From Trichormus sp. ATA11-4-KO1 (lineage in GTDB: Bacteria; Cyanobacteriota; Cyanobacteriia; Cyanobacteriales; Nostocaceae), in the NCBI GenBank assembly GCA_019358915.1, contig JAHHIM010000036.1:32001-96000 (forward strand): 64,000 bases of DNA. Reading direction: 5' to 3'. Every line of letters begins with the position of its first letter. The first letter of the stretch is position 1. Shown in pieces: positions 21,001-24,000 of the stretch. Position numbers: made by a program.

Positions 21001-24000
21001 TAAAATGCTCGTCTTCTATTGCCTTAATCTTTAATGCCGCTTTGTAAGCTTCCTCCAGCGATCGCTCTGGGGTTAGTAAGTACCATCGGTAAGCAGCCAG
21101 TAAAAAAGGGTAAATTTTTTGGCTAAAAATAGGCATTCTCATTTTGGGCAATCATCCAGCATTTATTGGTGATTTTTCAGCTTAAGTTAACGCACAAAGT
21201 ATACTAGCAAATCTACAAGGGGAGGATTTGTGATTTCTCATTCTATTTGGATTGTTGGCCCTAGTCGCAGTGGTAAGACTACTCGCTTGGTAGAAAATTT
21301 TTGTTCTTGGTTACAAAGTGAAAATGAGATTATTGAATCATTTTATACTAAAAAACGCAACCAAAAAAAAAGCGGGCAGATACCACAATCCTTCTATCTA
21401 CCAAAAACAGAGCCAGGAGTATTGGTGTTGGCAGCTAATGGTGAAAACCGCCGTGGATTTGGTGATAAAATTGTTACAGCAACCCAAGGAAAATATCCAG
21501 TTCGTGCCAAAACAATCCTGGGTTTTTTTCAAGATGAAGTTATTTTATTTTGGCCTTTATTGATTCAGTCTTTGAATCTGAAAGCACAATTTCCGGTACG
21601 ATTGCGCCCAGAAACTGAACAGGAATTAGCAACAAAACTGTGGCGATCGCAATTAGATACAGCAATCTTGAGTCGTGCTGGTGTGAATGAGTATCGTTTG
21701 GTACGTCGCATCCTGGATTTATGGCAATTAGCAGCTTACAGTGGTACGCCTTGCGAAGATATTGCCTCAATTTTACAAAGAGGTTTACAGGAAAATGCCA
21801 TAGATTTAGAGCCGGAATTATTGGCATCTTTGTTATTAGATTGGCGGAACTGGTGTTTAGAAAGAGGATTGCTGACTTATGGCATCATTACTGAACTTTA
21901 CAGTCAGAACTTATTAAGCGATCGCTATTACCAACAGTACTTAACTCAACGCTATCAAGCTGTACTAGCAGATGATGTCGATGATTATCCTGGCATAGCG
22001 CGTCAACTGTTTGATTTTTTGTTGGATCAAGGAGCTGTAGGGGCATTTAGCTATAATCCTGATGGTGCAGTACGCCTAGGATTAGGTGCAGATCCCAACT
22101 ACTTGGAGGGTTTAGCAGGGCGTTGTCGAATTGAGAAATTAACTGAATCACCTTTTCCACGTCTTGCAGATAGACTCGCGGCGCCAATGGTGGAATTAGT
22201 CACAGAACCGATGCTTTTGTTTAGCTTACCAGAACCAGTACAATCAATTCAAACCACCTCTCGCGCTCAGCTGTTACGGCAAACAGCAGAAGTCATCGCT
22301 GATGCTATCACCTCTGGGCAAGTAACGGCAGAACAAGTAGCAATTATTGCTCCAGGTTTAGATGCGATCGCTCGTTATACCTTAATAGAAATTTTAGCCA
22401 AGCAAAACATCCCAGTTGAATCACTCAACGACCAACGCCCCTTAATTAGTTCACCTATCATCCGGGCATTACTTACCATGTTGGCATTAGTCTATCCCGG
22501 TTTGGGTCGCCTAGTAGATCGGGATGCCGTAGCCGAGATGTTAGTTGTTCTCAGTAGAAAACAAGAAATACCAGAAAACTCTTCTTCATTCACCACTCCC
22601 CACTCCCCATTGCCCCTTATCCCCAGAGGGGGCCCCACCTTCCCCACTCACATAGATCCAGTCCGCGCTGGATTAATTGCCGATTACTGCTTTGTCCCTC
22701 ATCCTGAGTGTCCCAAATTGCTACCAGTGTCAGCATTCGAGCGCTGGGACAGAATAGGCTATGTAGCCACCACAGCTTATACTGAGATTTTACAGTGGTT
22801 AGAAAAACAGCGATCGCAGCAAGAACAGCGTTTACTACCTAGTCCCATTTCCCTGTTATATCTGGCAATTCAGGACTTTTTGTTTAGAGATAGCAATCCT
22901 CCCTACGAGCAAATGGCAGCATTACGGGAATTATTGGAAACTGCTCAACACTATTGGGAAATTGACACCAGACTACAACAAATTCCAGGTAGCTCAAAAA
23001 ATTGGGAATCAGAAGTAGCAATCACCCCTTCATCCCCAATCACCACTTCCATAGCCGAATTTATTCAACTGCTGCGACGTGGTACCATCACTGCTAACCC
23101 TTACCCTTTACGTCCCATCGGCCCCGCCAGAAAAGCTGTCACCTTAGCAACTATCTTCCAATATCGCTCTAGTAGAAGATTTCATCATTGGCATTTTTGG
23201 CTAGATGCTGGTTCACCTCTATGGGCCAAAGGTGGTGCAGCTACTTTATTTGGGGCTAATTTTTTCCTGCAAGATAGACTAGGCGAACCTTGGACAGCAG
23301 AAGATGAACAACAGGCAGAAAAACAAAGATTACACAGAATTTTGCGAGATTTGCTCTCTCGCGTATCCCAGAAAGTTTATTTGTGTCACAGCGAGTTAGC
23401 TGTAAATGGACAAGAGCAATTAGGGCCTCTGTTACCTTTAGTACATGCCTGTATACCATCTGAGGCAGCTATTACGTAAATTTCTAGAACACCCTAAGCG
23501 ATCGCCAAAATCTTTACAATATTAACGTGAATTCGATGAGCCTCATCCCAACCCTCTCCAACACGGCTATCCATTAATCACATCTTTCTTTACAATCTTG
23601 AAACCCTAGTTTCATAGGTATCTCAAAGACTAAGAGGTCAGGCATACTTGACAAATTCGCGCTTAATCTTCTCGCTAAAACTGCATTTTTATTGAGAATT
23701 AGCAACGAAGGAATCAGTATGATAAAAAACGTGAGTGAATACTCTCGCCAATGTTGAGTAAAGATCCGGGTAATGGATAGCCTGGCAGGGTAGAGGTTTG
23801 GAGAGGGGTTTTTCCCACTTGTCGAACTTACGTAATATTAAGTAAAGTAAAGAAGTTTATGAGAAATCAGAGTTAAACACAATGGGAATATTTGGATTTG
23901 GTAAAAAGCTGGCTATCCCCACCCCTGAGGAAGCTTTGCCAGGAAGAGCAAAATCGATGCCAGTACCCGATCATCACTATGTCAACAAAAACCCTTTGAA

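Follow-up and report, generated by a model that had tools for sequence, protein, structure and literature searches.

What does the conserved cyanobacterial gene beside pxcA encode? In the window analysed here, a 64,000-nucleotide stretch of Trichormus sp. ATA11-4-KO1, this gene (hereafter X) is found under the database names 'recombinase family protein', 'Cyanobacterial membrane protein, in cluster with PxcA' and 'PD-(D/E)XK nuclease family protein', and a preliminary description proposed it as a candidate AddB/RecC-like subunit. RecBC(D) genes are reported to be absent from model cyanobacteria (PMC5101192); a passage of PMC12094033 adds that most cyanobacteria are without RecBCD and AddAB and that the source of Argonaute guides is unclear. 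We consider it likely that X, an SF1A helicase (Y), a nuclease (Z) and RecJ make up a split AdnAB-type helicase-nuclease for DNA ends, with X as a non-hydrolysing, motor-like subunit.

Predicted fold and motif state of X

The open reading frame is real and has the length originally assigned to it (Table 1); it starts at a GTG codon with GGAGG 4 nt upstream. A search of X against Pfam and NCBIfam again gave no match, the top Pfam score (E 0.095) lying below the cut-off, and the 120 best homologs were close kin throughout and uninformative. By contrast, 17 of the 30 distant relatives scanned exceeded the PF00580 cut-off. A far better model, built from 88 sequences (pLDDT 91.7, pTM 0.91), upheld the proposed superfamily-1 helicase fold and places it in SF1A: the four subdomains 1A/1B/2A/2B and the P-loop are present, and Foldseek returned 71 matches at E<=0.001. 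The model ends at the 2A domain, in agreement with the earlier view that X has no nuclease domain, and PF12705 matched none of the scanned operon X and Y proteins or X-Y fusions. A search for longer forms, weak as evidence, returned an X-Y fusion and AdnA-type proteins and no close X-Z fusion.

Table 1 Features of the X locus and of the partner genes. Positions without a contig prefix count along the window.
Feature	Position	Strand	Remarks
Gene X	21230..23479	+	749 aa; AdnA-like subunit with an SF1A helicase fold (1A/1B/2A/2B), predicted to be catalytically impaired; nuclease domain absent
Upstream region of X	21182..21225	+	read from the DNA; putative function
Block kept in close kin	21182-21194	+	putative, as above
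-10-like hexamer	21200-21205	+	putative, as above
Ribosome-binding site of X	21221-21225	+	putative, as above
X motif I / P-loop	21257..21280	+	residues 10-17, K16
X motif II region	21962..21991	+	residues 245-254; D248 retained, D249 in place of the catalytic Glu
X motif III region	22052..22096	+	residues 275-289; G279 in place of the sensor Gln, aromatic pawl absent, R282 conserved
X motif V region	23138..23215	+	residues 637-662; canonical motif gone
X motif VI arginine finger	23360..23362	+	R711; present in 49/50 oxygenic-type rows
pxcA (CemA family)	19823..21151	-	divergent neighbour; context only, probably outside the system
Y	G000:C1:274136-276610		825 aa; UvrD-like SF1A motor, motifs intact
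Z	G000:C17:86508-87305		266 aa; PD-(D/E)XK nuclease with four Cys, separate gene
RecJ	G000:C17:83132-85495		
PcrA	C22:30876		canonical; gene apart from X and Y

Active UvrD/PcrA/Rep helicases have DE in motif II, Gln in motif III and Arg in motif IV as hallmark catalytic and coupling residues. Judged by these and by the aromatic pawl of motif III, whose role is treated in a section of PMC13000450, X departs from an active enzyme throughout. The protein begins at motif I, with no Q-motif helix upstream. At the catalytic Glu site of motif II the oxygenic-type rows have Asp (45/50) or Asn (5/50), Glu being absent among the listed residues, and the motif V region instead holds Q644, Y645, H652, W657 and D659, invariant across 50 such rows. 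The reported alteration of motifs II, III and V was therefore confirmed, with the correction that the motif IV Arg is gone too, whereas the motif VI Arg is retained. The description of Walker A as intact held only in part: among the 48 oxygenic-type rows with a residue at that site, 43 have Lys and five have Arg, and the motif is lost in the fused form. Taken as a whole, the alignment describes X as a protein predicted to have kept its P-loop and arginine finger and to have lost the residues for hydrolysis and coupling.

The residues retained in oxygenic cyanobacteria (30 rows: P-loop Lys 29/30, motif II Asp 30/30, motif VI Arg 29/30) could be read as those of an ATPase or helicase that still works, if slowly, or of an ATP-sensing regulator of Y, and part of PMC13000450 reports AMPPNP bound by AdnA. 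We regard either reading as very unlikely: the catalytic Glu, the motif III Gln with its pawl and the motif IV Arg are all missing, and the P-loop Lys itself gives way to another residue in 18 of the 35 non-oxygenic rows, in genome G053 and in the X-Y fusion.

Relatives of X

It had been stated that X has no sequence-level match in the PDB. This is correct for the single sequence, which found nothing under E 0.78, but not for the family profile, which ranked AdnA first (E 4.5e-14, profile positions 6-514; 55 bits, against 31 for AddB). In profile-profile comparisons, whose targets were alignments of 3-5 rows except for Y, the E-values were 2.5e-20 for AdnA-like proteins, 4e-17 for Y, 3e-8 for AddB, 1e-6 for PcrA and 0.017 for RecC. 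By profile, the nearest characterised relative of X is mycobacterial AdnA, not RecC.

Neither X nor any other protein of this genome matched PF04257, and the likeness of X to RecC (1W36_F) is one of general fold only. The curated AddB model TIGR02773 likewise matched neither X nor this genome; it matches 7 of 201 genomes, all from one non-oxygenic family. Of the proposed AddB/RecC-like role, the part that stands is that of a non-motor, end-processing subunit with a degenerate UvrD fold; the RecC half is not supported, and AddB ranks behind AdnA.

In structural comparison, the X model gave Z-scores of 25-27 (rmsd 7-12) with UvrD/PcrA/Rep, 22.0 with AdnB (rmsd 4.0, 599 aligned), 19.8 with AdnA (rmsd 5.0, 558 aligned) and 19.8 with AddB (rmsd 5.4, 604 aligned); in Foldseek, UvrD/PcrA/Rep were tied with AdnB, AdnA and AddB. 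The higher UvrD/PcrA/Rep Z-scores count against an AdnAB-type reading of X. In a tree, X and Y each formed a clade, and the two clades branched alike where the rows are non-oxygenic. The same tree, a quick search, grouped X with AdnA and AddB (SH-aLRT 97), which may be long-branch attraction.

Partner genes and operons

The preliminary description had overlooked a partner helicase, a separately encoded nuclease and recJ. X and Y form an SF1A paralogue pair in which the motifs of Y are invariant (K64, D295-E296, Q364, R399, H690 and R774 in 65/65 rows) and those of X degenerate. Neither the four Cys of Z nor its catalytic residues vary across 15 rows, and the Z model matched best the nuclease domain of AdnA (residues 788-1037; Z-score 17.3, rmsd 3.7, 218 aligned), by which Z is predicted to be an AdnA-type iron-staple nuclease. 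The genes for X, Y, Z and RecJ all occur in this genome, at scattered positions.

Elsewhere these genes stand together. X-headed operons of the order X, Y, Z, often with recJ, were found in non-photosynthetic relatives, Chloroflexota, Bacillota and other phyla, the spread in other phyla being drawn from loci found via Y. Among 30 stretches from non-oxygenic relatives, picked for having a match, X-Y-Z were consecutive in 16, recJ was adjacent in 13 of these, and a fused X-Y preceded Z in three; the fusion of X to Y belongs to one lineage. At 45 named non-cyanobacterial Y loci, X was present in 25, Z in 28 and recJ in 17. X lies directly 5' of Y in non-oxygenic relatives and other phyla, and neither in this genome nor at any of the 32 cyanobacterial Y loci.

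Across 77 genomes of the class, X was found in 72, Z in the same 72 and Y in 70, while RecC occurred in four, all without X, Y and Z; kin are not independent, and these counts overstate the association. Several observations count against a split machine. Two genomes (G180, G194) have X and Z with no Y found, and in family f26 X occurs alone, adjoining efp, with RecC in 12 of 13 genomes. Fifteen of the 45 non-cyanobacterial Y loci have none of X, Z or recJ nearby; among 18 X-Y-Z genomes from other phyla, five also carry an AddB-type gene; and 17 of 20 RecJs from operons scored better with the other RecJ of this genome than with the one in Table 1. A C-terminal extension of RecJ, tried as a way to tell the operon RecJ apart, had no match in this genome.

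The complex model of G053 X (residues 2-653) with Y (389-735) scored 0.58, against 0.00 for the best of three controls; runs shared at least 82% of contacts, with partner pLDDT of at least 69. Of 157 solved complexes 116 clear the mark applied, as do 2 of 215 mismatched pairs; with a score of 0.60 or less, it was cleared by just 18 of those 157 and by both of the mismatched pairs. Since AdnAB and AddAB structures are already solved, the pass may reflect likeness to them, and the prediction lends weak support to an X-Y heterodimer.

Knockout screens in Synechococcus elongatus

Published screen data (PMC10653904 Data S2; PMC7125226 supplement) were assigned to the four genes through the order and lengths of the genes in G053, which pairs 0992 with X, uvrD with Y, cas4 with Z and recJcy with RecJ. 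All four genes are non-essential. Fitness values for RSF1010 and transformation were +2.26/+1.11 for 0992, +2.39/+1.34 for uvrD, +3.39/+2.68 for cas4 and +2.24/+1.12 for recJcy, compared with +5.58/+5.16 for ago and, among controls, 0.00/-0.37 for pcrA and -0.07 for the other recJ. The four account for 4 of 6 high-confidence positive hits for RSF1010 plasmid maintenance, Argonaute being the fifth, and for 4 of 12 such transformation hits. Integration at a neutral site was slightly reduced in knockouts of Y (-0.51), X (-0.35) and RecJcy (-0.26), with Z unaffected (-0.02). UV fitness showed no defect in the four knockouts, all within 0.07 of zero, nor in pcrA. Transcripts rose after 2 h UV (log2 +1.06 for X, +1.66 for Y, +1.51 for Z), as did those of pcrA and the other recJ. 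The operon, gene fusion, co-occurrence and shared knockout phenotypes thus give the non-motor-subunit reading of X its named partners.

The rise of natural transformation on loss of these genes, an effect that loss of a pro-recombination resector need not have, counts against a resection role. It also bears on a different account, which we hold to be improbable though worth weighing, in which the four proteins would cooperate on single-stranded or forked DNA, not on double-strand ends, chiefly to clear foreign or aberrant DNA. Their substrates would be stalled forks, strands entering by transformation and plasmid intermediates of strand displacement, and X would activate Y through a 2B-2B contact, as in UvrD dimers. 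Improved transformation and RSF1010 maintenance are the only strong phenotypes and a UV defect is lacking, both of which fit this account, as do the peak of the X fold Z-scores with UvrD/PcrA and the action of RecJ and ACE1-like nucleases on single-stranded DNA given in part of PMC12094033. It sits less well with the resemblance of X and Z each to the corresponding half of AdnA, with the near-exclusion of RecC, which suggests a common role, and with the retention of the genes in an Argonaute-free genome.

The screens also bear on pxcA. That it lies beside X was borne out at 31 of the 33 cyanobacterial loci examined, most of them from close kin, and together with the database names this might tie X to proton extrusion and membrane physiology, or to a recombinase. 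Such a role is largely refuted and deserves almost no credence: X matches no recombinase family in Pfam or NCBIfam, its model is a globular SF1A fold with no clear membrane helix (top hydropathy 1.63, versus 2.18 for PxcA), and its relatives in other phyla adjoin Y, Z and recJ, in operons where pxcA was not seen. The RSF1010 fitness of the pxcA knockout (-1.24) is opposite in sign to that of X. The adjacency, to which more weight had been given, looks incidental. A palindromic promoter common to X and pxcA was rejected, the palindrome occurring in just 2 of 45 upstream regions.

In PMC10653904, a table already labels 0992 as COG0210, and a section of the text treats its product as hypothetical, noting a domain like PD-(D/E)XK, and does not propose a single complex. 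A literature search found no description of an X-Y-Z-RecJ system, within a coverage that left out most subscription papers.

Proposed machine and comparison with known systems

The split AdnAB-type reading draws on fold, motif pattern, operon, fusion, co-occurrence and the mapping of knockout data. Beyond these we infer that the four proteins form a physical complex that acts at DNA ends with the strand polarity given below, that X binds ATP but does not hydrolyse it, and that guides are supplied. X would pair with the intact 3'-5' SF1A motor Y, chiefly via the 2B domains, and would clamp the unwound 3' strand and act as its conduit, possibly binding ATP that is not used for movement. The nuclease found at the C-terminus of AdnA and AddB would here be the standalone Z, with RecJ as a second 5'-strand nuclease beside it, and no subunit would carry the 3'-strand nuclease of AdnB, AddA or RecB. 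Lacking that activity, the machine would either produce a 3' tail, with no Chi switch, or shred foreign DNA and pass the fragments to Argonaute where one exists.

AdnAB of Mycobacterium smegmatis (6PPJ, 6PPR, 7SJR, 9NP6) similarly comprises two SF1A paralogues; its motor-like gene precedes the motor gene, as X precedes Y in non-oxygenic relatives and other phyla but not at the 32 cyanobacterial Y loci. X matches the N-terminal domain of AdnA, whose motif II is also DD and which part of PMC13000450 describes as an ATP-binding passive conduit, and Z resembles its Fe-S nuclease domain; AdnA, however, retains the motif III Gln. Each AdnAB subunit carries a C-terminal nuclease domain, whereas X and Y have none, Z is a free Fe-S-type protein, and the AdnB nuclease has no counterpart. 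X-Y-Z operons also take in recJ, X-Y fusions occur, and AdnAB is reported from Actinobacteria only, unlike the X system of cyanobacteria, Chloroflexota, Bacillota and others.

AddAB of Bacillus subtilis (3U44), as presented in a section of PMC3321194, shares a dead helicase subunit that, Walker A and the Asp of motif II apart, has lost most helicase motifs, an iron-staple nuclease, and a chief subunit contact at the 2B subdomains. It differs in its weaker similarity to X, in the lack of a TIGR02773 match in this genome, in its fused nuclease, which is the separate Z here, and in Chi recognition, of which there is no sign here; X additionally retains the motif VI Arg. RecBCD likewise sets an inactive UvrD-fold subunit, RecC, next to a motor and has a complementary distribution in cyanobacteria, but X shows the PF04257 and profile results given above, and the operons read have no RecD-like partner.

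A passage of PMC5704561 describes an unfused two-gene operon of UvrD and Cas4-like genes in Clostridiales, outside defence contexts and with a guessed role in DNA repair, which may correspond to Y-Z; X, recJ, cyanobacteria and AdnAB are not mentioned in that passage. Z is also similar to ACE1, an Argonaute-associated Cas4 nuclease (9IAB, 9IAC; PMC12094033; E 6.7e-9, Z-score 15.0), although the Z gene sits with helicases or recJ, not with Argonaute. The X system was rejected as a dedicated Argonaute accessory because a Piwi match is missing from this genome.

Two further candidates were set aside. HIP1 as a Chi-like site for X was not supported: all five X-lacking genomes of a first sample were HIP1-poor, and X is nonetheless present in HIP1-poor f34 (7/7), f44 (4/4), f49, f50, G125 and G282. 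Identity with the plasmid-borne 'addAB' of PCC 7002, as mentioned in part of bioRxiv 2024.09.10.611283, was not borne out, X matching one of 72,556 plasmid records (Salinibacter), a set outside which pAQ6 may lie.

On balance it seems somewhat probable that X-Y-Z-RecJ is a fourth bacterial end-resection architecture beside RecBCD, AddAB and AdnAB, in which a motor and a dead motor work with RecJ and an unfused iron-staple nuclease, while a 3'-strand nuclease, and hence a Chi switch, is lacking. It would be spread across cyanobacteria, Chloroflexota, Bacillota, Latescibacterota and others, would be the RecBCD counterpart that most cyanobacteria are reported to lack, and would there be the source of the DNA guides of Argonaute. 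Four named, non-essential genes could then fill both the end-resection and the guide gap, and four unconnected hits of two published screens would be explained together if they form one machine. Knockouts of X, Y, Z and RecJ offer a route to cyanobacteria that transform better and work better with broad-host-range plasmids, and the naturally split form bears on the origin of AdnAB and AddAB.

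A degenerate helicase-fold gene divergent from pxcA

Gene X, a single-copy gene oriented divergently from pxcA, was confirmed as previously observed. Its protein matched no Pfam or NCBIfam model, and close relatives carry database names including 'recombinase family protein', 'membrane protein in cluster with PxcA' and 'PD-(D/E)XK nuclease family protein'. The sole further match of the X family profile in this genome was PcrA (E 3e-6). A search of 1.84 billion representatives recovered 525 relatives at E<=0.001, among them a distant group (24–31% identity) with named members from Clostridiales, Carboxydocella and Anaerolineaceae; in the proteins scanned, 17 of 30 distant relatives and 1 of 10 closer ones reached the PF00580 UvrD-helicase cut-off. 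Among 72,556 plasmid records a single relative turned up (23% identity, 86% query coverage), borne by a plasmid of Salinibacter ruber M8. Most same-family genomes read keep, upstream of X, a block of 13 bases with a -10-like hexamer behind it, which may be a regulator site.

A structure model built from 88 sequences (pLDDT 91.7, pTM 0.91) bore out the superfamily-1 helicase fold assigned in the preliminary description, as did 71 Foldseek matches at E<=0.001; UvrD, Rep, PcrA, AddB and AdnB were tied among these, reproducing the AddB–UvrD/PcrA tie seen with the earlier model. UvrD, PcrA and Rep led the structural alignment by Z-score (25–27) but at rmsd 7–12 Å, whereas AdnB (Z-score 22.0, rmsd 4.0, 599 aligned), AdnA (19.8, 5.0, 558) and AddB (19.8, 5.4, 604) superposed on nearly the whole chain at lower rmsd. 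On this basis the modelled 2B subdomain of X appears to resemble in orientation those of AdnAB/AddAB-type heterodimers.

The roles of helicase motif residues are established from PcrA/UvrD. The 50 oxygenic-type alignment rows of X showed a P-loop Lys in 43 (Arg in 5, gap in 2), D248 of motif II in 49, Asp (45) or Asn (5) at position 249, the site of the PcrA catalytic Glu, Gly in most rows at the motif III Gln site, no motif IV Arg, a remodelled motif V, and R711 of motif VI in 49. The reported alteration of motifs II, III and V therefore stands; the intact Walker A holds for the Lys rows only, with Arg in five and the motif lost in fused X–Y proteins. This pattern fits a subunit that may bind ATP without coupling it to movement. 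In the motif V region, Q644, Y645, R646 and H652 are near-invariant in oxygenic cyanobacteria and not in other phyla, making them candidates for a lineage-specific DNA or partner contact.

The lack of a PDB match was upheld for the single X sequence; the family profile, by contrast, reached AdnA first (E 4.5e-14, positions 6–514), then PcrA (3e-10) and AddB (7.5e-7). Profile–profile comparison, with target alignments of 3–5 rows, gave AdnA-like 2.5e-20, AddB 3e-8, PcrA 1e-6 and RecC 0.017, and motif II of AdnA likewise reads DD. By profile, AdnA is thus the nearest characterised protein. By curated models X is neither AddB nor RecC. The earlier reading of X as a candidate AddB/RecC-like subunit was supported in part and much extended.

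Knockouts of X, Y and RecJcy behave alike

Knocking out any of six genes eases RSF1010 maintenance in S. elongatus PCC 7942: ago, cas4, uvrD, recJcy, rpoD2 and Synpcc7942_0992 (PMC10653904). The paper's supplement labels 0992 COG0210 and shows it behind cobU, divergent from pxcA; its text leaves 0992, uvrD, cas4 and recJcy unlinked (PMC10653904). In the compared genome G053, four loci agree with those of these hits in gene order and closely in gene length, by which they mapped to X, an intact UvrD-like helicase (Y), a stand-alone PD-(D/E)XK nuclease (Z) and RecJ (Table); the G053 proteins are 41%, 51%, 32% and 42% identical, respectively, to X, Y, Z and the C17 RecJ of this genome.

RSF1010 fitness was +2.26 for X, +2.24 for recJcy, +2.39 for Y, +3.39 for Z and +5.58 for ago knockouts, against 0.00 for pcrA, -0.07 for the other recJ and -1.24 for pxcA (PMC10653904). 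Natural transformation, with 12 positive hits, gave +1.11, +1.12, +1.34, +2.68 and +5.16 in the same order, and -0.37 for pcrA (PMC7125226). The near-equal values of X, Y and RecJcy in both screens are as expected of subunits of one pathway, and X very probably shares one with Y, Z and RecJcy. Neutral-site integration after conjugation was slightly lower without Y (-0.51), X (-0.35) or RecJcy (-0.26), with Z at -0.02 (PMC10653904); AdnAB similarly supports recombination without its nucleases (PMC5314763). None of the four knockouts had a UV fitness defect, which argues against a major repair role, although the pcrA knockout had none either; UV raised X, Y and Z transcripts 2–3-fold, and pcrA and the other recJ also rose (PMC9659335).

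Gene order links X to Y, Z and RecJ

X-like matches occurred in 177 of 201 genomes of the phylum, non-photosynthetic classes included. Thirty stretches from non-photosynthetic relatives, selected for holding such a match, were read for gene order. X was followed by Y and Z in 16, with recJ adjacent in 13 of these; in three, all of family f25, X was fused to Y (~1280 aa; X 2–618, Y 633–1262) ahead of Z; five were partial. All 73 f25 genomes had X matches, with open frames of 1110–1317 aa among the matches listed, and the protein collection held at least 120 proteins of this length. In the remaining six stretches, all of family f26 (L034, L038, L041, L043, L044, L045), X stood alone directly behind efp; RecC was found in 12 of 13 f26 genomes, and Y and Z in none at the thresholds used, so that X there may be orphaned or repurposed.

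Y loci numbered at least 523; within the best 80, the 45 with non-cyanobacterial titles (Chloroflexota, Bacillota, Latescibacterota, Ignavibacteriales, Rhodothermales, Handelsmanbacteria, Gemmatimonadaceae) comprised 12 X-Y-Z-recJ, 11 X-Y-Z, 5 Y-Z-recJ, 2 X-Y and 15 Y alone; Y was alone in all 32 cyanobacterial and 3 unclear loci. The four genes are scattered in this genome. The RecJ that lies near Z corresponds to recJcy; 17 of 20 operon RecJs from other phyla scored higher against the second paralog.

Coordinates of X, its proposed partners and other features
Feature	Position	Strand	Remark
X	21230-23479	+	749-aa ORF, GTG start preceded by GGAGG
Block and hexamer upstream of X	21182-21205
X region with Q644, Y645, R646 and H652	23138-23215
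Y	C1:274136-276610		this genome
Z	C17:86508-87305		this genome
RecJ	C17:83132-85495		this genome, two genes from Z
Second RecJ paralog	C9:125670-127802		this genome
Canonical PcrA	C22:30876		this genome, apart from Y
G053 X	cobU-pxcA-X		0992
G053 Y	by argF and btpA		755 aa; 2515 (uvrD)
G053 Z	between folK and chlD		255 aa; 2273 (cas4)
G053 RecJ	between permease and ctpB		775 aa; 0517 (recJcy)
Fused X–Y	L032:8168-12016, L040:8542-12399, L046:8005-11829		X half without Walker A altogether, Y half intact
Plasmid relative of X	NC_014028.1:10232-12115		S. ruber M8
PIN-domain gene	18556-19005	-	PF13470
DUF3854/CyRepA1-family gene	8939-12061	+	1040 aa

Y retained the key residues of motifs I–VI in 65 of 65 rows, and its profile did not set AdnB apart from Rep, PcrA or AddA. 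Z has four invariant Cys with iron-staple spacing and invariant D120, D133, K135, Q151 and Y155; its model (pLDDT 82) best matched the AdnA nuclease domain (Z-score 17.3, rmsd 3.7, 218 aligned), followed by ACE1 (15.0) and AddB (13.9). Since the X profile is nearest AdnA and the Z model nearest its nuclease domain, X and Z can be read as AdnA in two pieces, with Y an AdnB-like motor without nuclease.

Because contact between AddA and AddB is mainly by way of the 2B subdomains (PMC3321194), a complex of G053 X (2-653) and Y (389-735) was modelled from 65 paired rows, alongside three controls. The score of 0.58 (best control 0.00) lends weak support; at least 82% of contacts recurred between runs, and partner pLDDT was 69 or higher. 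In calibration the pass mark let through 116 of 157 solved complexes and 2 of 215 mismatches, but only 18 of the 157, along with both mismatches, at scores <=0.60; similar complexes have already been solved, so the pass may reflect likeness. The natural X–Y fusion is the stronger argument, and a physical complex is likely.

Distribution and proposed action

Of 77 class-level genomes in the 201-genome sample, 72 had X, the same 72 Z, and 70 Y; RecC occurred in four, all without X, Y and Z, and profile searches of the five X-less genomes gave weak PcrA-type matches only. In G180 and G194, X and Z were found and Y was not, through a gap in assemblies of ~200 contigs or real loss. A broader sample of the class had X in 106 of 121 genomes; it was not found in f20 (0/7), one f22 genus (0/5), f45 (0/1) and two incomplete assemblies. 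In 16 of 29 genomes selected for being HIP1-poor or for lacking a gene, X and Y occurred together; 10 had neither and 3 had one without the other, and RecC was in three of the 29, all f20. AddB model matches were confined to 7 of the 201 genomes, all f24. None of eighteen X-Y-Z genomes of other phyla (completeness unstated) had RecC, and five had an AddB-type gene. X, Y and RecC were not found in six near-complete cyanobacterial genomes, five of genus g47 (G134, G232, G251, G267, G296) and G213; with AddB searched in G134, this group may be without any known end-resection machine. In a quick tree of 45 rows X and Y each formed a clade with matching non-oxygenic branching, which shared descent alone would also produce, and X, AdnA and AddB were set apart from active motors, a grouping that could stem from long branches.

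A role of X, Y, Z and RecJ in end resection is reasonably probable, the main rival being that the same team acts on single-stranded or forked DNA. In resection, the X–Y heterodimer would load on a DNA end and Y would track 3'-5', while X would clamp Y and, as has been suggested for AdnA (PMC13000450), channel the 3' strand. Z would stand in for the AdnA nuclease, acting on the 5' strand, and RecJ would add a further 5'-3' nuclease; having no 3'-strand nuclease, the machine would need no Chi switch. The same action would destroy foreign DNA and might supply guides to Argonaute. No Argonaute was found in this genome by a Piwi match, so the machine would be more than an Argonaute accessory.

The system would resemble AdnAB in its way of working but is not a member, because X and Y lack the fused nucleases of AdnAB and the range differs, AdnAB being reported only in Actinobacteria (PMC6452273). 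A gap in cyanobacterial end-resection genes has been stated (PMC5101192, PMC12094033) and unknown presynaptic systems allowed for (PMC1193525). An unfused UvrD + Cas4-like operon remarked on in Clostridiales (PMC5704561) may be Y-Z. No description of the four-part system was found in literature of mostly open-access coverage.

Two other genes in the window were noted. A solo PIN-domain gene near pxcA scored right at the PF13470 cut-off (27.3 bits), and beside it no antitoxin ORF of at least 80 aa was listed. A DUF3854/CyRepA1-family plasmid-replication-type gene (382 bits against an NCBIfam cut-off of 200) sits among housekeeping genes.
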